A DNA stretch of 64,000 bases from Candidatus Woesearchaeota archaeon (GCA_041665465.1 JBAYIU010000001.1:1081733-1145732), one strand, 5' to 3'; numbered from the stretch's first letter, positions 45,909 to 55,986 are shown. Made by a program: numbers and translations. Notes: generated by a model not told the origin, from the sequence alone.

Positions 45909-46295
45909 ATGAAACAAGCTACTATTACTATCGATGATTTTGTGAGAAGGATCTTTCCTGACCCTGGAGAGTCTGCTAGGGATTATCAAACTGCAATTGC
46001 AGAAATTCCTGCTAACTTGAGAGAAAAATGGGGTGGTTCTAAGTATAATACTCTTATTTTTACTTATGAATTGGGAAGGGAGGCGTTAGAAGTTCATATG
46101 GCTGATTATAAAGAAAGAGGGACTTTTGATGAGATTGCTGTATCCACTGCTTATAATGGGATGGGATCTATTGCTATCAGCAGTTTTTATGGCCATAGAG
46201 ATCTGAGTATGTTGATTGTAGCCAAAGATGAAACTGCCGCTTGCCATTGGGAAAAATCACTAACTAAATGTGGATACACTACACAGAGGATTTAG
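45909..46295 (+). CDS. Hypothetical protein, tandem paralog A (128 aa)
   Basis: MKQATITIDDF...LIVAKDETAA..W...L...GYTTQRI. The same length and end motifs as the next gene. Confidence 0.45.
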   Translation: MKQATITIDDFVRRIFPDPGESARDYQTAIAEIPANLREKWGGSKYNTLIFTYELGREALEVHMADYKERGTFDEIAVSTAYNGMGSIAISSFYGHRDLSMLIVAKDETAACHWEKSLTKCGYTTQRI

Positions 46296-46298
46296 AAT

Positions 46299-46685
46299 AT
46301 GAAACGGGCTACAATTACTATTGATAATATTGCCGCAGAGTTATTCCCTAAAGTTGGAGATAAAAAATCCAGAACTTATTCCGCTATTCTTACCGATGTT
46401 TTAGGCATCTTGCAGAGTAAAGGAGACGATCCCGGTTATAGTGTTGTTGTCTTTACCAGTGGTTTTGAAGGAAAGTTTGTGGAAGTTCGTGAGAGTGGTG
46501 TTAGACAAACAGGCGTTTTTACTAGAATTACTGGGACTAGGTTTGAACTTCATGAAGCGGTTCTTAGAAATTTATATGGGAGTAGAGATTTTGCAGATCT
46601 TCTAATCGTAGCTAAAGAATCAACTGGGGCTGATTTTTGGAATGGCTTATTAAATGGATTTGGATATAATACTCGAAGAATTTAA
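46299..46685 (+). CDS. Hypothetical protein, tandem paralog B (128 aa)
   Basis: MKRATITIDNI...LIVAKESTGADFW..LLNGFGYNTRRI. Collinear with paralog A. Confidence 0.45.
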   Translation: MKRATITIDNIAAELFPKVGDKKSRTYSAILTDVLGILQSKGDDPGYSVVVFTSGFEGKFVEVRESGVRQTGVFTRITGTRFELHEAVLRNLYGSRDFADLLIVAKESTGADFWNGLLNGFGYNTRRI

Positions 46686-48195: not shown

Positions 48196-49224
48196 ATGGA
48201 ACGGGTTATTCTTAAAACATTAAATAAGAATCTTGGCTATAAACCAGGAGAAAGAGTTCTGATTATTCAGCAAAACTGGAGCAAAGGATTAAGTAAAGAA
48301 ACCAAATCCCGATTTGAACTTTCTAAGAAAGTGTGCCAGAAAATGTTTCAAGTGTATAAGAAAGTCAAAGTAGATGTTTCTTTGTTAACTTACTTTCCTA
48401 AAGAAGCTCGTTCAGGAGTAGATGTACCGAAAGGAACTTACACTTCTGTCCTGAAAGATGTTCCTGAAATTATCTTTATGCCCACTGCTTATTCTCTGTC
48501 TCATGTTCCTTCCACTAAACTATTACTTAAGAAAGGAGCACGTATTGCTAGCATGCCTAGTTTCACTTTAGATATGTTTGCAGAGAATGGGCCGATGAGT
48601 GCTAATCCTTTAGATGTTGGAAGAAGAGGAGAAAAAATTTATCAAAAGTATAAGAAGAGTAACTTTATTCATATCACTGGCAAGAAAACAGATATCGTTG
48701 TTGAAGTGGATCCTTCTATCGTGCATCACGCAGAAACGGGAATTATTAAGAAAGGAGACTTAGCTAATTTGCCAGCAGGAGAAGTATGCGGGGTTCCTAA
48801 ACATTTAGGAAAATCTCATGGGTATATCACTGTGCCAAAAGGATGGGGTGGACCTTTTCCTTTGAAGTATGAAATTACTCTAATCGCTAAGAATGGTCGA
48901 TTTGTAAATATTCTGAATGATGATCCAAAAGCTAAAGAGTATATTAATTCTAAACTTAAACCGTTAATTTTCGGCAAGAAGGGATTTGATGTCTTAGCAG
49001 AGTTAGGTATAGGTACAAATCACAAAATCACTCCTCAATATATCCAAAAGCATGGGTGGAGTGCTCTTACCGCAGAAAAGATTATCGGATCAGCCCATTT
49101 CGCTAACGGTTGCAGTGCTGGATTAGGTGGAAAGAATGATGTGCCTGTGCATTTAGATTGGGTCGTTCCTAAGGTTAAGATTGACTTTGATTATAAAATA
49201 AAAAATAAAAAAGCAAAAGATTAA
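48196..49224 (+). CDS. Putative aminopeptidase (M29/AmpS-like)
   Basis: LAELGIGTNHKI resembles the M29 G-E-x-x-I-G-T-N motif. Weak. Confidence 0.4.
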   Translation: MERVILKTLNKNLGYKPGERVLIIQQNWSKGLSKETKSRFELSKKVCQKMFQVYKKVKVDVSLLTYFPKEARSGVDVPKGTYTSVLKDVPEIIFMPTAYSLSHVPSTKLLLKKGARIASMPSFTLDMFAENGPMSANPLDVGRRGEKIYQKYKKSNFIHITGKKTDIVVEVDPSIVHHAETGIIKKGDLANLPAGEVCGVPKHLGKSHGYITVPKGWGGPFPLKYEITLIAKNGRFVNILNDDPKAKEYINSKLKPLIFGKKGFDVLAELGIGTNHKITPQYIQKHGWSALTAEKIIGSAHFANGCSAGLGGKNDVPVHLDWVVPKVKIDFDYKIKNKKAKD

Positions 49225-50324
49225 ATTAACCTTTTGCTGGCCGTTCCGGGAGGAAGTTTTCTTAAAGATACTGCGTTTTGTCCTCCTAGTTGTTGCATCA
49301 CTTCTGGGCTGGGCAGTTCAATCAATCCTTTATCCTGTTTAACTTTTTGGAGGAAGATGTTGCTTAGGAACCTTAAGGAAGTGTAAGCACTCTCTATCGC
49401 TCCAAAACTCATATCTCCAATCCCAGTGATGCTCTTGGCATCATCTGCAGCAATACCTAAAAACTTAGTAGCAAAGTCTAACCCGCTTTTGTTAGCTTGG
49501 GCATCGTACTTTGACTTTACAGTTTGGAGATAGAAATGGCTAGTAACATGTATTACTCTTCCTTCTCCTACCGGGAATTTTACGGCGATGGGGGATTCTC
49601 CATACTTGTTTCCCATCTCTGCACTGCCTAGCAATATTTCTAGTCCTTCTTTTCTTAATGGTCTGATAGGATAACTGCTGCTTTCTAACCACCAGATGGG
49701 TTTTAATGCTCCATTACCCAATCCTTTGGTGTATGGGCTTCCGGAAGCTATTAGGTCTACTTCTACTAAATCGTCACTGGTATTATGTTTCCCTCTTTCC
49801 ACATGTCCGGGGAAAGCATTCATGATGACACTTTCTAAGGCCCAGTCGGTAGTTACTAAATATCCTCCTGCATTTACAAATGCTTGCAATGCTTCCGTTC
49901 CGGACTTTCCCCGATAGCGATAATCTAACGTTCTTCCTGGACAGTTAACTAACAAGATCTGTTTTGGATCTAGATTAGTATATCCGTTAGCGATCTTGTA
50001 TGGTATCCCTGCCGGACTTAGTACTTTTTCTACTGAATCATATTGTCCGGGGATGACCACAATTCGATCGTTGTCCAATTCTTTTAGTAAAGACTTTTCA
50101 TCTCCGGGCATGGCTGCATCTACCACTCTGGCTGACATCATGTAGGCAGATTTCATGTCTACTGATTTTTTTGGAGTTTCTGATTTCTTGCTTCCTCCAG
50201 ATTTAGATACATAGGCTTTGTCTGCATCATAGTTAGTGTATCCATTCTTAGCAGATCCGTAATCAAATCCACCATTACTTCCACTCCAACTAGCGCTTGT
50301 GTCGCTTCCCCAGCTGTAACTCAT
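49221..50324 (-). CDS. Hypothetical protein with an S/G-rich N-terminal tail, last gene of the kinase operon
   Basis: MSYSWGSDTSASWSGSNGGFDYGS... low-complexity N-terminus, then a globular domain (LLVNCPG...AFVNAGGYLVTTDWA) possibly with a class I glutamine-amidotransferase-like fold. Confidence 0.45.
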   Translation of the reverse strand: MSYSWGSDTSASWSGSNGGFDYGSAKNGYTNYDADKAYVSKSGGSKKSETPKKSVDMKSAYMMSARVVDAAMPGDEKSLLKELDNDRIVVIPGQYDSVEKVLSPAGIPYKIANGYTNLDPKQILLVNCPGRTLDYRYRGKSGTEALQAFVNAGGYLVTTDWALESVIMNAFPGHVERGKHNTSDDLVEVDLIASGSPYTKGLGNGALKPIWWLESSSYPIRPLRKEGLEILLGSAEMGNKYGESPIAVKFPVGEGRVIHVTSHFYLQTVKSKYDAQANKSGLDFATKFLGIAADDAKSITGIGDMSFGAIESAYTSLRFLSNIFLQKVKQDKGLIELPSPEVMQQLGGQNAVSLRKLPPGTASKRLI

Positions 50325-50326
50325 GT

Positions 50327-51391
50327 TTATCCTCCCCCATCATATTTTTTTGTTCGTTTAAACATCGATTCCCAAATTTTTCTCTTGGGCTGATAGTCAT
50401 TATCTATGGCTTGAAGAAGGTTCAAAGCAGAAAACAAAGCTTCTTCTTTAAAACAAAGGTCGTCGCCCACCATTATTCTCTTATATCCTATCTCGCGAAG
50501 ATATCCTATATCTGTAATATCTGAGCAATCTGGGACGTATCCCTGTTTCAATGAACCAAGAATACGAGATGCGGCGATAGCTCGTGGATCCGCGTCTACA
50601 ATTTGTCTGGTGGCTTGCAAGATCTGGTGCGGTTTTCCTACTTCTACATACAAGTCTCCTCTAGCAGCCATCAGTCTAACTCTGCTTCTCCAGTCTTGGT
50701 AATCATTAGTTACAAATTCTAATCCTGGTTGAGATTCAATTTTCGCTACCGGTCTAGCTAAAGGATCTCTTTCTAGCAAATCACTTAAATCAGAACTTTT
50801 TTCCACGTAAGAAAGCATATAATCATGCATTCCTACTTTCTTTGCTGCTTCGATATATTCTAAATCTCTTGGTGTAAAGTATCCTTTGATTTTTAAACTG
50901 GGATGAAGAATGTTGATCGATTCTCCTCCTCCCACCACTCTTTGTGGTCCATCTAACATGATTAACTTGTTTCCATCAACTTTCACAATGTAAGCAGATT
51001 GATGTCCATCGTTGAAATAACATTTTACTGGTTTAGAAGTGTCCAACTCAATCTCATGGTCGATCTCTATTACTGACCAGGGTGGTGTTCTTAATTGTCC
51101 ATAAGATTTTGGATTTGAGGGGTCTAAAACTATTTTCTTCCCATCAACTTCAATGATGGTTGGTTCTTTCGGTGAGTCATAAAATTCTCCTCGGTTTATC
51201 CTGATTTGTCGACACTTTAAATCGATCCATACCGGTTTATCTCCGGCACAGTCTTTTATTCTAAGAAGTGCATCTTCTAAACTTTCTTTTAGGGGCATAA
51301 CTGTGTTTAATCTAAATCCCTCGACAATAGGGTGTTCAGCGATACTTTTTAGATAAGGTGCATATGGTGGTATGGTTACAATTGCTTTCAT
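50327..51391 (-). CDS. Pyruvate-kinase-like TIM-barrel protein lacking the C-terminal PK domain
   Basis: KIESQPGLEFVTNDYQDW...RLMAARGDLYVEVG matches the PK signature KIEN.EG...MVARGDLG.E. At 354 aa it is about 100 aa shorter than a canonical PK. Confidence 0.55.
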   Translation of the reverse strand: MKAIVTIPPYAPYLKSIAEHPIVEGFRLNTVMPLKESLEDALLRIKDCAGDKPVWIDLKCRQIRINRGEFYDSPKEPTIIEVDGKKIVLDPSNPKSYGQLRTPPWSVIEIDHEIELDTSKPVKCYFNDGHQSAYIVKVDGNKLIMLDGPQRVVGGGESINILHPSLKIKGYFTPRDLEYIEAAKKVGMHDYMLSYVEKSSDLSDLLERDPLARPVAKIESQPGLEFVTNDYQDWRSRVRLMAARGDLYVEVGKPHQILQATRQIVDADPRAIAASRILGSLKQGYVPDCSDITDIGYLREIGYKRIMVGDDLCFKEEALFSALNLLQAIDNDYQPKRKIWESMFKRTKKYDGGG

Positions 51392-51407
51392 GGTTTACCT
51401 CCGTTAT

Positions 51408-52397
51408 TTATACTTCTAATTTTTTGTTCGATTCTCTTCTACCAAAAACTTTCATTCTCACGTCTGAGAATTCTTTTACTAAGTCATGACCTTCCCAACT
51501 ATTACGTAAAAGGGGATTGGGATTAAGGAAAGTTTCAAAATATTCTCTAATTGGTTGAGGTACATTCTTTGGGAATTTTTTAGCTAAAGGGTTTCCTCCA
51601 AAAGCGTACATCATAGTTAAGGCTAAAGAATAAAGATCAGTTGATGGAAGTGGTGGCCTTAACTCTACTAGTTCTGGGGCTGCAAATGCTTCGGTGTATC
51701 CTTCTGCTCTACTTTTATGTTTAGGTCTTAAACTGGCGAAACCATAATCTACTAATACGGCATTATGTTCCTCAGGTTTGATGATAATATTGTTTGGTTT
51801 GACATCGCAATGAATTACTCCATTAAAGTGCAAATAATGTAGAGCGTTTAGTAAACGTTGAGTTATCCATGATGCATGTTCTGGGTCAATCGGGCCATGT
51901 TCTCGCACAATCTTTTCTAATGTTGGTCCGGGAACATAGCTCATCGCAAAGATATAACTCCCATCATCGGCATGAAAAAAGTCTCTTAAAGTGGGTAAAG
52001 AATAATGATTGATGTTCCAAAGTAATTTTGCTTCATGAGCCATGATCAAAGAGTCATCAGGAGACACGTGCAAGTTTTGTTTCAAACAAGCAAGTTCTTC
52101 TAACAAAACATGTTTAGCTTTGTAAGTTACTCCAAACCCTCCTTCAGCAATCTTTTCTAAAACTTGATAATTTCCGATAACTCTCTCTTGAGGGAATATC
52201 TTTTGGTCATACTTTTTTCTTTTTTCTTCATCACACAATACTTCCCTAGCTTCATTCAATAACTTGGCAACGTTTTCATTGCCTAGTCCTTTGTCGGGAT
52301 GATATTTGGTCATTAAGACCCGATAGGCCGCTTCTATTACTCCTGTTCTTGCCCCCGGGCTAACTTCTAAAACATGATAATAGTTTGGGTTTGCCAT
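51408..52397 (-). CDS. J-domain (DnaJ N-terminal) fused to a Hanks-type Ser/Thr protein kinase
   Basis: YYHVLEVSPGARTGVIEAAYRVLMTKYHPDKG (HPD motif), then GGFGVTYKAKH (Gly loop), HCDVKPNNIII (catalytic loop), DYGFAS (DFG-like) and APE. Confidence 0.7.
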   Translation of the reverse strand: MANPNYYHVLEVSPGARTGVIEAAYRVLMTKYHPDKGLGNENVAKLLNEAREVLCDEEKRKKYDQKIFPQERVIGNYQVLEKIAEGGFGVTYKAKHVLLEELACLKQNLHVSPDDSLIMAHEAKLLWNINHYSLPTLRDFFHADDGSYIFAMSYVPGPTLEKIVREHGPIDPEHASWITQRLLNALHYLHFNGVIHCDVKPNNIIIKPEEHNAVLVDYGFASLRPKHKSRAEGYTEAFAAPELVELRPPLPSTDLYSLALTMMYAFGGNPLAKKFPKNVPQPIREYFETFLNPNPLLRNSWEGHDLVKEFSDVRMKVFGRRESNKKLEV

Positions 52398-52514
52398 GAG
52401 AAATCGTTAGCGAAAGATTTATATATATTTTAGGACACCAGAATGTATACTTGTGTCGTTGTGGTTATAATAACCACAAATCACTTAATAATATGTATAT
52501 AACCTAAGAGGTGA

Positions 52515-53432
52515 ATGGAATTGCGTAGAAAAATCGTTAAGCATGGTCCTTCTTCTTTAACCGTATCTTTGCCCATGCACTGGGTTAAAAATAATAATCT
52601 TAAAAATGGGGATGAGGTTGAAGTATTAGAACGTCCGCGTGAATTGGTAATCTCTGGTGAAGGAAAGAGAGAGGCAAAAGAGATCACTATTACCTTGAGT
52701 AGTAAAAATCCCTTCGTTAAAAGATTATTTAACACTCCTTATCTCCATGGATATGATATAATCAATGTAAAGTTTGATTCTTATATTGTGATGGAAAAGA
52801 TATTACAATGTGTTAATGCTTGGAGAAGTTTTGAAGTGATTGAACAAAGAGAAAATTTTTGTAAATTAAAGAGCATTGCTGAAGCTAAACCTGAAGAGCT
52901 GGATGCTATGATTGTAAGAATGTTTAATATCTGCGATACGGTGTTAGAAGAATTATTATTATTTATTAAAAAAGATGATCTGGAAGCACTTAAAAGGATC
53001 TTGCTTTTGGATTCTACCATGACGGGAATAGATTTATTTTGTCGAAGAGTAATTAACACCGGAAAGGGAATTGAGATCGAGAAAGCTGGTAGTGTTTATT
53101 CTATCGTAAGAATCCTAGAGGAAATTTCCGACTTAGCTCGAGATATTGCTAATCGTTGTCCCAAGATTAGAATGATTCATAAGCAAGAATTTACTAAAAT
53201 TGTTGAACTATCAATGCAAAGTCTGGTTCTATTACGCAAGATTAGGTATAAGGGAGAAGTAGAATTGATGTATGAATATAAAGAACTAAAGAACCAACTT
53301 CGTGCTCGTTTTGATAAAGATCATAATTTTAATTCCGAAGAGATGTTTTTCTTTATGACTTTAAGACACCTAATCTATGAATTACATGATTTGTCTGGAG
53401 AAGTTTTATTATGGGTGAAATGGGGACAATAA
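52515..53432 (+). CDS. AbrB-N/PhoU-like regulator (paralog 4 of 4)
   Basis: MELRRKIVKHGPSSLTVSLPMHWVKNNNLKNGDEVEV at the N-terminus. Divergent from the kinase operon and upstream of the CYTH-like gene. Confidence 0.65.
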   Translation: MELRRKIVKHGPSSLTVSLPMHWVKNNNLKNGDEVEVLERPRELVISGEGKREAKEITITLSSKNPFVKRLFNTPYLHGYDIINVKFDSYIVMEKILQCVNAWRSFEVIEQRENFCKLKSIAEAKPEELDAMIVRMFNICDTVLEELLLFIKKDDLEALKRILLLDSTMTGIDLFCRRVINTGKGIEIEKAGSVYSIVRILEEISDLARDIANRCPKIRMIHKQEFTKIVELSMQSLVLLRKIRYKGEVELMYEYKELKNQLRARFDKDHNFNSEEMFFFMTLRHLIYELHDLSGEVLLWVKWGQ

Positions 53433-54630: not shown

Positions 54631-55104
54631 TTAACAGCTTCTAATATTTTCTAAAATCGTTGCTTGTTCAGTACAAATTTGTTCTGCATCGTACAACACA
54701 ATCTTGGGAGTAATCTTAATTTGTTTAATCTTTCCACTAACTGATGAATCATAATTTAAGTGTCCTAAATAATTGCCTGCTTTAATCATCTTGGCATCAT
54801 TTAGTTCGTAAGATTCTGCTTTAACCTCACCAATAACACTAAACACTAATCCTTCTACTTTAATATTTACTCCATTTTCTAAAGTGAAAGCCACATCTTT
54901 CTTAGCTGAATCGTAACATAATTGTTCCTGTCCTCCAATTACTGCTAATTTTAATCCAATCTGTACCGGGCATTGGGCACTAGACTCTACTTCTGCTGCA
55001 CCAAAGTTCATCACTACTACCCCCACAGCTACCGCAAAAGAAATAAGTAATAAAGTGACCATTAAGGGAGTAACACCTTTCTTTTTATGTAAGTGATTAA
55101 CCAT
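54631..55104 (-). CDS. Putative archaeal type IV pilin-like protein (class III signal peptide)
   Basis: N-terminus KKKGVTPLMVTLLLISFAVAVGVVV is a basic stretch plus a hydrophobic helix, reminiscent of prepilin/archaellin signals. The rest is beta-rich. Confidence 0.4.
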   Translation of the reverse strand: MVNHLHKKKGVTPLMVTLLLISFAVAVGVVVMNFGAAEVESSAQCPVQIGLKLAVIGGQEQLCYDSAKKDVAFTLENGVNIKVEGLVFSVIGEVKAESYELNDAKMIKAGNYLGHLNYDSSVSGKIKQIKITPKIVLYDAEQICTEQATILENIRSC

Positions 55105-55558
55105 GTTTCCAGTAAGATTTTCCTTTACGTAAGATTTCTTTTACTCTGTGTATTGGTACAAAAATCTCTTTTCCTTCTTTCATCACGAATATCAAAAAAC
55201 CTTTTTCAATCTGTTTCAAATGTTTTACTTCATACAACAAATCTTTTTTTTGTAATCGGTCATGGAACTTAATATGGAATTCCTGTTTCTGTGGATGTTT
55301 ATGTATTGCGTGAAGAGCAGCACTTGTTTTTTGCTCTTCTAATTTTAATGGGTCAAATTCTTTTAAGATTAATCCCGAGGAGGCTAAGATAATTACCCCT
55401 GCAGCTAAACTAACTAAAGGGTTTTGAAGAAACCAGAGATTTCCTACTCCATCCCACAATCCTGCCCAGAATAAAACTATTCCTATCACTCCAATCATAG
55501 CCCAAAAGTAATGTCTTAAATTTTCTGTAGTTAATTGGATCATCTTCATAGCCTCCAA
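55097..55558 (-). CDS. Hypothetical 2-TM membrane protein, tandem paralog 1
   Basis: Shares with 55546-55986 a 2-TM N-terminus, the KEFDPL motif, H..HP.K..F.I.(Y/F)HD and a C-terminal E(I/V)F(V/I)P(I/L)HR(I/V).E(I/V)...GK(S/T)YW. Confidence 0.45.
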   Translation of the reverse strand: MEAMKMIQLTTENLRHYFWAMIGVIGIVLFWAGLWDGVGNLWFLQNPLVSLAAGVIILASSGLILKEFDPLKLEEQKTSAALHAIHKHPQKQEFHIKFHDRLQKKDLLYEVKHLKQIEKGFLIFVMKEGKEIFVPIHRVKEILRKGKSYWKHG

Positions 55559-55986
55559 TAGGTCTTTCCTTTATACATTACTTCGTTGATACGGTGTAAA
55601 GGGATGAACACTTCTTGTCCATTATTCTCATGTTCTACTACCAAACTTCCTCGTTCAACATGTTTTATCCGTTCTGCTCTAACTATAACATCTTTCTTTA
55701 GAATTTTGTCATGATAATGAATCTCAAATAGGTTCTTATGAGGGTGACCAGTGATAAAATGAGCTACACGATTGGTTGATTTATCTAAACTGCCTAGAGG
55801 ATCAAATTCTTTAAAGATTATCCCGGAAAAGGTAAGTATAGCAAATCCTACAAATAAAGCAACCCATTCATTTCCGATAGCAGGGATTTCGTACCATCCT
55901 TCCCATAACCCTTTCCATACCAGGATAACTCCTAGAGCTGCAGTCAAAGACCATAAAAAATGTTTATCTTGTTCTCTCAGTATCAT
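55546..55986 (-). CDS. Hypothetical 2-TM membrane protein, tandem paralog 2
   Basis: See the previous entry. Overlapping start and stop imply an operon with the pilin-like gene. Confidence 0.45.
   Translation of the reverse strand: MILREQDKHFLWSLTAALGVILVWKGLWEGWYEIPAIGNEWVALFVGFAILTFSGIIFKEFDPLGSLDKSTNRVAHFITGHPHKNLFEIHYHDKILKKDVIVRAERIKHVERGSLVVEHENNGQEVFIPLHRINEVMYKGKTYWRL

Follow-up and report, generated by a model that had tools for sequence, protein, structure and literature searches.

A 64-kb stretch of the genome of a Candidatus Woesearchaeota archaeon—a DPANN archaeon; the stretch is called the window here, with positions counted from its first nucleotide—carries an operon of three genes on the minus strand. 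These encode a fusion of a J-domain and a Ser/Thr kinase, a pyruvate kinase (PK)-like enzyme, and a protein with a conserved N-terminal tail. In this work, we describe the three proteins and propose that the operon very likely belongs to a conserved kinase/tail-protein/PK-like module, of which no published description was found in the literature. Its PK-like gene is a member of the module's enzyme family, and both a tail protein and an orthologous kinase adjoin it on the same strand. A preliminary description of the sequence had presented the three open reading frames (ORFs) as a tightly packed operon, and their exact coordinates, with spacings of 16 nucleotides (nt) between genes 1 and 2 and 2 nt between genes 2 and 3, agree with this:

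51408-52397, minus strand: gene 1, ORF of 329 amino acids (aa), J-domain/Hanks-type Ser/Thr kinase fusion
50327-51391, minus strand: gene 2, ORF of 354 aa, PK-like enzyme of A- and B-domain without C-domain, "long-lid" subtype
49221-50324, minus strand: gene 3, ORF of 367 aa, tail-bearing glutamine-amidotransferase-like protein

The three proteins of the operon

Gene 1 comprises the following elements:

52206-52385, minus strand: J-domain, residues 5-64 (Pfam DnaJ PF00226)
52293-52301, minus strand: HPD motif inside the J-domain, residues 33-35
51579-52169, minus strand: kinase domain, residues 77-273 (Pfam Pkinase PF00069)
51429-51446, minus strand: F-G-R-R-x-S motif, residues 318-323, a basic Ser site at the kinase C-terminus

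Both Pfam matches lie above their cutoffs—the J-domain with an E value of 1e-15 and 58 bits (cutoff 27.8) over profile positions 1-63 of 63, the kinase domain with 1e-33 and 117 bits (cutoff 31.7). Across 30 J-kinase homologs, H33 of the HPD motif is invariant, and P34 and D35 are at least 90% conserved. By alignment to CaMKI and StkP, the catalytic set of the kinase is present with K106 (β3, ACLK), E122 (αC), D198/N203 (HCDVKPNN), D217 (DYG), and E242 (APE), all of which are invariant in the 30-homolog alignment. Since the catalytic residues are invariant or nearly so, gene 1 is by its sequence an active-looking kinase and not a pseudokinase. The preliminary description had named the J-domain with an intact HPD motif and the Hanks-type kinase motifs correctly. 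Its remark that such fusions are rare does not hold, as about half of the top 120 kinase homologs match PF00226; a limitation of the J-domain to the window's clade was likewise ruled out, with J-kinases occurring in other module subtypes too. The protein, which NCBI names "DnaJ domain-containing protein," ends in a FGRRES...KKLEV tail with no further domain after it. Hereby, F318, G319, R320, and S323 are invariant in the 30 homologs, and the motif recurs in the kinases of about 50 loci. It is reasonable to infer that the J-domain recruits Hsp70: many DPANN archaea have DnaK-DnaJ-GrpE (PMC8204110). A homology search revealed no second J-protein in the window.

Two elements of gene 2 are central to its interpretation:

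50654-50746, minus strand: PK catalytic core A-K217-I-E219-S and M-A-A-R-G-D246, with the catalytic Lys, the Mg2+ Glu, and the Mg2+ Asp
50912-50932, minus strand: G-G-G-E157-S-I-N at the ATP-site position, where PKs have a Lys (KKGVNLPG)

The fold is that of an A-domain TIM barrel with an inserted B-domain. Gene 2 alone stays below the cutoffs of the PK profiles (29.7 of 30 bits for PF00224, 37.6 of 306 for TIGR01064, 44.3 of 432 for NF004491) and is 15-21% identical to PK. A profile of 26 family sequences matches solved PKs at an E value of 2e-15 and was aligned to 1a3w, 8eq3, and 8iw2. The family itself has a mean column identity of 56% across archaea and bacteria, and its motifs—RLNTVMP, DLKxRQxR, GxGE, KIES, MAARGD, and ASRI—are all found in gene 2. 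K217, E219, and D246 align with KIE and MVARGD of the yeast and Escherichia coli PK and correspond to K270, E272, and D296 of the rabbit enzyme. They are invariant in the family, as are the further phosphoenolpyruvate (PEP)/Mg2+ residues R27, N29, and D57—which we take to be R73, N75, and D113 of rabbit PK—and the RLN and DLK.RQ.R motifs. Three features are missing or changed. In the profile alignment, E157 is invariant at the position of the ATP-contacting Lys of the PK B-domain, which is kept in yeast PK, E. coli PK, and 8iw2; the proton-donor Thr is a Ser; and the C-terminal allosteric/tetramerisation domain is lacking, as gene 2 ends about 20 residues past the last helix of the barrel. Hence, gene 2 is not filed as a pyruvate kinase here, and the PK-barrel signature without the C-terminal domain, which had been noticed before, stands. 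As the PEP/Mg2+ chemistry appears to be kept and the ADP-site Lys is lost, the enzyme probably moves phosphate from PEP to an acceptor other than ADP, or binds a PEP/pyruvate-type ligand. We speculate that Glu157 would suit the activation of a hydroxyl acceptor.

Alternatively, gene 2 might be a minimal glycolytic PK without the allosteric C-domain, regulated in trans by the tail protein and Ser/Thr phosphorylation, in which case the operon would unite a metabolic gene and the genes that regulate it. The PK fold with its complete PEP/Mg2+ catalytic set agrees with this, and so does the label pyruvate kinase, which JGI and NCBI give to many family members. Also, only a minority of the complete Nanobdellota genomes have a canonical PK call (10.64898/2026.05.13.725050), a gap that a non-canonical PK could fill. 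We nevertheless regard this reading as unlikely: the ATP/ADP-site Lys, which 8iw2 and the canonical PKs keep, is invariantly Glu; the scores fall far below the curated cutoffs (44 vs 432 bits for NF004491, 29.7 vs 30 for PF00224); and the lid—the segment from DLKCRQIR to GGGES—measures 89 aa in the window and 91-97 aa in the candidate phyla radiation (CPR), but only 55 aa in most DPANN archaea and non-CPR bacteria, that is, in most members. In addition, the genes sit in nicotinamide adenine dinucleotide (NAD) salvage arrays rather than with glycolytic genes, and relatives occur in metagenome-assembled genomes of Chloroflexota, Acidobacteriota, and Myxococcota, which usually have canonical glycolysis. 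A second PK was not found in the window by homology search. The label pyruvate kinase on such genes is an annotation trap, which can distort metabolic reconstructions, for example, of genomes without upstream glycolysis. PK (K00873) has been reported in 39 of 123 Woesearchaeales and 9 of 54 Pacearchaeales complete genomes, some of them without upstream glycolysis (10.64898/2026.05.13.725050), and some of these calls may be members of the PK-like family.

Gene 3 consists of a globular domain between two disordered ends:

50238-50324, minus strand: tail motif MSYSWGSDTSASWSGSNGGFDYGSAKNGY, residues 1-29, conserved N-terminus, predicted disordered
49320-50156, minus strand: globular domain, residues 57-335, class-I glutamine-amidotransferase/ThuA/GIFT-like, flavodoxin-like GATase1 fold
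49224-49286, minus strand: disordered basic C-terminal tail ...T-A-S-K-R-L-I, a variant of a K-K-S-x-K-L ending

Sequence searches of Pfam, NCBIfam, PADLOC, and the PDB gave no family match. In the AlphaFold2 model (pLDDT, the predicted local distance difference test, of 79.7, and predicted template modelling score of 0.82), residues 1-51 are predicted to be disordered, and residues 347-367 have a pLDDT below 50. The nucleophile elbow, placed by the secondary-structure register, reads TTDW (residues 155-162, LVTTDWAL) where D160 is invariant and a Cys is lacking; the VNCPG and HVTSH motifs, likewise invariant, are specific to the gene 3 family. Bearing TTDW instead of GxCxG, gene 3 is not a canonical amidotransferase and is, going by the model, a GATase1-like fold without the Cys-His-Glu triad. 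The N-terminal stretch had been described as a Ser/Gly-rich tail. A segment predicted to be disordered does precede the globular domain, but it is a conserved motif of the pattern M-x-Y-S-W-G-x-D…G-G-F-D-Y-x-S-A-K-x-x-Y and not of low complexity.

The module across genomes and its setting in the window

A scan of one genome per species revealed relatives of the PK-like enzyme in 348 species genomes, and the PK-like profile gave 160 matches at E values of 1e-30 or below against 1.84 billion cluster representatives. The carriers are DPANN archaea, CPR/Patescibacteria, Vulcanimicrobiota, Chloroflexota, Acidobacteriota, Myxococcota, Planctomycetia, and a few further groups. For the best 80 of the 348 loci, ORFs were called and searched with seeds from the window and the first contexts, and neighbours were counted on the same strand within 6 kb of the PK-like gene; 63 of these loci have enough upstream sequence. 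The neighbours and gene orders are:

~320-aa von Willebrand factor A (vWA)-like partner: 69/80 loci, 58/63 with enough upstream sequence
Orthologous Hanks kinase: 52/80 loci, 49/63 with enough upstream sequence
Homolog of the gene 3 globular domain: 25/80 loci
RlmN/Cfr-like radical S-adenosylmethionine (SAM) protein: 14/80 loci
Calcineurin-like phosphatase (Metallophos): 7/80 loci
Order kinase, partner, PK-like: 22 loci
Order kinase, partner, gene 3 homolog, PK-like: 15 loci
Order partner, PK-like: 14 loci
Order phosphatase, kinase, partner, PK-like, radical SAM: 6 loci (CPR)
Order J-kinase, PK-like, tailed gene 3 homolog, radical SAM: 3 loci (L011, L012, and L015, the closest relatives of the window)

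The kinases of the other module loci are 55-60% identical to that of gene 1. The usual partner is probably a vWA-like protein, as suggested by a metal ion-dependent adhesion site-type DxTGS motif, recognised by eye, and the typical β-α pattern; it has no sequence match in the PDB and almost none in Pfam, NCBIfam, and PADLOC. In the window's clade of Woesearchaeota, the vWA-like gene is gone, and the tail is found on the amidotransferase-like protein instead. Homology searches found neither a vWA-like nor a radical-SAM homolog in the window, which hence has lost or relocated its radical-SAM gene. Related genomes (L001/L015, L004/L011, L012, and L013) show the trio in synteny, so that—together with the intact kinase and the aligned HPD motif—nothing that the preliminary description had named as a refutation was encountered. 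L013 (5985-11942) shows an intermediate arrangement of J-kinase, vWA-like, PK-like, vWA-like, tailed gene 3 homolog, and radical SAM, with three tail-bearing proteins. As observations on the side, two ORFs of about 120 aa without Pfam match lie between the vWA-like and PK-like genes of L036 (7225-7995), L066, and L074—in the slot that the gene 3 homolog occupies in other loci—and also in L050 and L060, and an FtsZ gene directly follows the trio and radical-SAM gene in archaeon HN681 (L001:9052-10152).

The tail connects these arrangements. The very N-terminus of a vWA-like protein of Vulcanimicrobiota, MPYSWGDDTGFAAESESEGGYDYASARAAY, can be aligned with the gene 3 tail MSYSWGSDTSASWSGSNGGFDYGSAKNGY (BLASTP E value 3e-7); bacterial proteins without annotation were ruled out as homologs of the gene 3 globular domain, as only their tails match. 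The consensus of 68 tails reads M-Y-S-W-G-x-D-T-x-x-W-K-x-P-G-x-Y-x-Y-x-S-A-R-x-P-Y, where the invariance of Y and W is partly given by construction because these tails were picked by a regular expression demanding [YF]-[STGA]-W. A tail-only hidden Markov model (HMM), built from 64 tails of vWA-like partners of archaea and bacteria, was searched against all ORFs of the window and the loci, 4,065 in number. Its matches are 75 partner proteins and, from the window's clade, 11 gene 3 homologs—gene 3 itself over residues 2-31 with an E value of 8.6e-5; no other of these ORFs is matched, even at an E value of 10. Among gene 3 homologs, the tail is confined to the window's clade. The homologs of ordinary Woesearchaeota lack it because the vWA-like partner carries it there; tail-less homologs either co-occur with a tailed vWA-like protein or, as in an Asgard locus, sit away from PK-like genes. 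The tail thus appears to be an independent functional element of the module, and nothing argues for this more strongly than its transplantation onto another scaffold in just the clade in which the partner was lost.

Several variants of these ends deserve mention. The Asgard (Promethearchaeota) homolog at L009:3090-5921 lies beside a small GTPase of the Arf/Ras family and two unknown proteins of 151 aa, and neither a PK-like gene nor a kinase is found at this locus. A gene 3 homolog of 436 aa (L014:1780-3090) bears the tail motif twice, at residues 2-33 and at residues 87-119. In Chloroflexota (L077-L090), the second half of the tail diverges to Y-A-Y-A-P-A-A-A-P, and the vWA-like partners end in a zinc-ribbon-like GMFKCxxCGTTLKL rather than in the basic K-K-S-x-K-L; the latter ending is present in 35 of 76 vWA-like proteins, 21 of 26 gene 3 homologs, and none of 82 PK-like proteins. 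A likeness of the tail's Y-D-Y to the topaquinone motif N-Y-D-Y and of W..W-K to darobactin-type cores was considered and dropped.

It might be asked which protein the tail serves. It could mainly be a substrate of the Hanks kinase, with the PK-like enzyme as an unrelated co-regulated partner, and its predicted disorder, its conserved Ser/Thr/Tyr residues (Y3, S4, T9, Y22, S24, and Y29), and the presence of the kinase in 49 of the 63 loci with enough upstream sequence are in line with this. However, the motif is equally conserved in 14 vWA-PK-like loci without a kinase within 6 kb, for example, in Chloroflexota, which also argues against the generic kinase phospho-acceptor that the preliminary description had suspected in it. 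Furthermore, a tail-bearing protein adjoins the PK-like gene at every locus with adequate sequence bar three, a tail without a PK-like gene was never seen in the loci examined, and gene 3 homologs away from PK-like genes are tail-less. We therefore hold the kinase-substrate reading to be very unlikely. Rather than the kinase, the PK-like enzyme is more likely the main partner of the tail, which persists without the kinase and accompanies the PK-like gene. The tail could also be a precursor or acceptor peptide—similar to ribosomally synthesized and post-translationally modified peptides or to a peptide-derived cofactor—that is modified by the radical-SAM and PK-like enzymes. Its invariant Trp and Tyr residues would fit such a maturation, as would the RlmN/Cfr-like radical-SAM methylase without RNA-binding N-terminal domain that follows modules of the long-lid subtype, among them those of L011, L012, L013, L015, and CPR. 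This is extremely improbable in our view, since the radical-SAM gene is found in only 14 of the 80 loci and is missing from the window, the tail stays part of proteins with large globular domains, and neither a protease nor an exporter is linked to it.

The module falls into subtypes. The long lid (89-97 aa) is found in the window's clade, CPR, and Vulcanimicrobiota, and in a neighbour-joining tree, the PK-like clade of the window branches with the CPR group as its sister, separate from the other DPANN archaea. Such a grouping suggests that the long-lid subtype was transferred between archaea and bacteria long ago. A recent horizontal acquisition, which had been proposed from an elevated GC content, is a different matter. 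The region does reach the maximum of the window (0.394 vs 0.364), but the excess is small and comes mainly from gene 3, the GC content at third codon positions of genes 1 and 2 equals the window mean, and the locus including its regulator is conserved in relatives, so that a recent acquisition is unsupported. A third subtype with a divergent PK-like gene is headed by distant J-kinases (46-50% identity) and bears the variant tail MSESGDYxPGPWxGHDFxSA[KR]xxYD. Its trio of (J-)kinase, vWA-like, and PK-like genes is also found on three IMG/VR contigs classed as viral (L094 with 485 kb, L095 with 124 kb, and L096 with 139 kb), surrounded by dense co-directional ORFs mostly without Pfam matches; L094 also carries a Thg1-like gene and an ADP-ribosylglycohydrolase.

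In the window, the operon is framed by the following signals:

52515-53432, plus strand: AbrB/MazE-type and PhoU-like regulator gene, divergent from the operon
52398-52514, minus strand: putative shared promoter/operator region between gene 1 and the divergent regulator gene
52459-52479: perfect 21-nt palindrome TTGTGGTTATTATAACCACAA in the promoter/operator region, between the regulator gene and the J-kinase gene
52436-52450: conserved box GTATACATTCTGGTG between the palindrome and gene 1
52417-52430: TATA-like AAATATATATAAAT, ~20-33 nt upstream of the ATG of gene 1
49212-49238, minus strand: hairpin (12 bp) and subsequent T-run at the stop of gene 3, putative operon terminator

The palindrome is followed by an invariant TATATATA and by the box GTATACATTCTGGTG in the loci compared (L011, L012, and L013), and L011 has the same arrangement of palindrome, box, and TATA-like element, of which L012 and L013 keep a part. 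Palindrome and boxes are hence likely an operator plus promoter. Shine-Dalgarno-like sequences precede gene 2 (GGAGGT) and gene 3 (GGGGGAGG). The divergent protein, a candidate transcription factor of the operon, had been called a PhoU-like regulator. It does have a weak PhoU match (E value 2.6e-4), but its main match is to an AbrB/MazE-type domain (MazE_antitoxin, 7e-7). It recurs as a neighbour in 10 loci, is divergent-adjacent in L011, L012, and L013, and is a flanking gene common to the window and L004/L011, together with endonuclease V and NFACT. The operon likely ends at the hairpin and T-run, shared with the convergent ORF 48196-49224 (plus strand, 342 aa, no family match), the stop of which overlaps that of gene 3 by 4 nt; this single hairpin may terminate both genes. 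In the relatives L004 and L001, a radical-SAM gene takes the position of this ORF.

Farther away, two tandem paralogs of 128 aa (MK.ATITID..., 45909-46295 and 46299-46685, plus strand) lie 3 nt apart. On the minus strand, 55097-55558 and 55546-55986 are overlapping tandem paralogs of 153 and 146 aa with two predicted hydrophobic helices each and similar C-terminal domains, adjoined by 54631-55104, which has an archaeal pilin-like hydrophobic N-terminus.

Metabolic context and proposed function

To describe the surroundings of the module, 698 neighbouring ORFs were clustered and representatives were annotated. In 55 of the 80 loci, at least one co-directional gene of NAD salvage or ADP-ribose metabolism lies near the module (counting NadE, NMNAT-like, NUDIX, NrtR, nicotinamidase-like, NAPRT/NAMPT-like, ADP-ribosylglycohydrolase, and NadA). 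The short-lid DPANN modules are embedded in long co-directional arrays of this kind. Such an array typically starts with NAPRT/NAMPT-like, isochorismatase/nicotinamidase-like, NAD synthase NadE, NUDIX, and NMNAT-like cytidylyltransferase genes, continues with the kinase, the partner, in some cases the gene 3 homolog, and the PK-like gene, and ends with ADP-ribosylglycohydrolase, NadA or IU-nucleoside hydrolase, and an unknown protein of about 300 aa. The latter (cluster c1) has no Pfam match; it recurs in 30 DPANN loci, for example, at L034:13320-14249, each time downstream of the PK-like gene by about 2 kb. An NrtR-type regulator is often near the NAD arrays. In Myxococcota and Chloroflexota, NadE directly follows the PK-like gene; apart from NadE, the neighbourhoods in Acidobacteriota and Chloroflexota (RtcB, PurA, and a two-component system) were considered and gave no further clue.

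From this context, we tentatively propose—with slightly less than even confidence—that the PK-like enzyme has the tail as its target or its means of action, with the kinase and J-domain/Hsp70 controlling this complex in physiology linked to NAD/ADP-ribose. The PK-like enzyme would bind or modify the tail, which might be its docking peptide or its substrate. The kinase might act as a reversible phosphorylation switch, possibly on the basic Ser-containing C-termini, and in the CPR relatives, the calcineurin-like phosphatase might reverse this step. The J-domain would bring DnaK/Hsp70 to the kinase-bound client and thereby remodel or release the complex, by analogy with specialised J-proteins and with MoxR ATPases, which usually accompany vWA proteins. 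The output of such a system would most likely be NAD+/ADP-ribose homeostasis. A bolder version, to which we give little credence, is that the PK-like enzyme founds a PEP-dependent class of protein- or peptide-modifying enzymes that act on the partner's tail, gated by the Hsp70-recruiting kinase. The module would then sense or regulate NAD+/ADP-ribose homeostasis in archaea and bacteria of ultra-small size, and perhaps in their large viruses as well.

Several points weigh against this proposal. First, 14 proteins of the NAD clusters have no homolog in the window or in any long-lid locus (the window's clade and CPR), so the NAD link of the window operon is drawn from orthologs that are 47-60% identical. 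Second, the three loci mentioned above, of Myxococcota and Pseudomonadota, have a PK-like gene without a tail protein upstream of it, and the link between the tail and the PK-like gene is one of co-occurrence, where co-inheritance in a single operon would give much of the pattern. Third, the vWA assignment of the partner has weak profile support (VWA_CoxE, E value 0.013 in 2 of 37 members), and a homology search with a DnaK query found no DnaK in the window. Lastly, a PK of Entamoeba histolytica lacks the C-domain and is nevertheless deposited as "pyruvate kinase" (PDB 8iw2), so that plain PK activity might also be found in gene 2.

The same neighbours might point to a biological-conflict system—anti-virus or counter-defence, of the TerY-P or the ARG-centric kind—in which a vWA/chaperone sensor and a phosphorylation switch control an NAD+/ADP-ribose effector. 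The kinase domain matches defence kinases of PADLOC (mad6 with an E value of 2e-34, PD-T4-6 with 1e-33), although generic Hanks kinases also match these models; for the PK-like, gene 3, and vWA-like proteins, PADLOC gave no match. The architecture is reminiscent of the TerY-P triad of vWA, kinase, and phosphatase (PMC11090510) and of ARG-centric systems (PMC9503650), which combine vWA "chaperones" with a calcineurin-like phosphatase and a regulator of the NrtR type. ADP-ribosylglycohydrolase and NrtR often lie near the module, and the divergent trio occurs on the three large IMG/VR contigs. The slow evolution of the PK-like family with its 56% mean column identity across archaea and bacteria, on the contrary, does not fit, and neither do the stable housekeeping contexts in very small genomes (NAD biosynthesis, NFACT, endonuclease V, and FtsZ); also, no nuclease or other toxic effector was seen. 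Altogether, a conflict system appears quite unlikely.

The module of kinase, tail protein, and PK-like enzyme ties a PK-fold enzyme and a portable peptide tail to Ser/Thr phosphorylation, Hsp70 recruitment, and the metabolism of NAD/ADP-ribose. DPANN and CPR genomes are tiny, and the module is kept at 50-60% identity across two domains of life; hence, it likely matters for the physiology of these organisms. If the PK-like enzyme does act on the tail, this would add a new chemistry to the PK fold. If the module controls the homeostasis of NAD—a cofactor central to immunity and metabolism—this would bear on the cofactor management by symbionts and perhaps by their viruses.

Comparison with known systems

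Compared with PK, gene 2 retains the catalytic Lys, the Mg2+ Glu/Asp, and the RLN and DxK..R motifs, and it shares the lack of a C-terminal allosteric domain with 8iw2. It differs by the Glu of GGGESIN in place of the Lys of KKGVNLPG, the Ser in place of the proton-donor Thr, and an identity of only 15-21%, and its family is found with a tail-bearing partner (bar the three exceptions) and usually a protein kinase, not with glycolytic genes. For gene 3, the nearest group is that of triad-less class I GATase-like proteins (ThuA-like, DUF4350, GIFT/IFT52, and OST48), from which it is set apart by Asp160 at the elbow, VNCPG/HVTSH, the N-terminal tail, and the basic C-terminal motif.

GAK (auxilin-2) is a eukaryotic Ser/Thr kinase with a J-domain. 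Like the DNAJB1-PRKACA fusion—the DNAJB1-PKA chimera 4wb7 is among the PDB matches of gene 1—it combines a kinase and an Hsp70-recruiting J-domain in one polypeptide. In GAK, however, the J-domain lies at the C-terminus, with PTEN-like and clathrin-binding regions between it and the kinase, and beyond the two domains, gene 1 has no sequence relationship to either protein.

Ter systems are reportedly linked to TIM-barrel enzymes and phosphoribosyltransferases that make nucleoside-like metabolites, as is said to have been described by Anantharaman et al. in 2012. The TerY-P triad consists of a TerY-like vWA protein, a PP2C phosphatase, and a Ser/Thr kinase (PMC11090510). Most relatives of the window operon likewise couple a Hanks kinase to a vWA-type protein, to which the CPR relatives add a phosphatase, and both systems can be read as a phosphorylation-dependent switch. 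In contrast, the window has no vWA gene and neither a PP2C nor another phosphatase among the neighbours, the phosphatase of the relatives is calcineurin-like (Metallophos) and not PP2C, and the kinase lacks a C-terminal zinc ribbon or OB fold and often bears an N-terminal J-domain. TerY-P has nothing that corresponds to the PK-like enzyme or to the mobile N-terminal tail.

In the ARG-centric systems, vWA proteins are described as peptide-binding chaperones, next to an NrtR-type regulator and a calcineurin-like phosphatase (Iyer et al. 2022, PMC9503650). The module of the relatives also lies beside ADP-ribosylglycohydrolase, NUDIX/NrtR, and sometimes a calcineurin-like phosphatase, and the J-domain fits the chaperone theme. 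On the other side, ARG-centric systems are described without a protein kinase, a PK-like enzyme, or a J-domain, and the window has neither an ARG nor an NrtR gene. Moreover, they are rapidly evolving conflict systems, whereas the module evolves slowly and accompanies NAD biosynthesis genes. We conclude that the module is a variant of the kinase-coupled vWA-type switch, extended by a PK-like enzyme and a portable tail, for neither of which we found a described counterpart.

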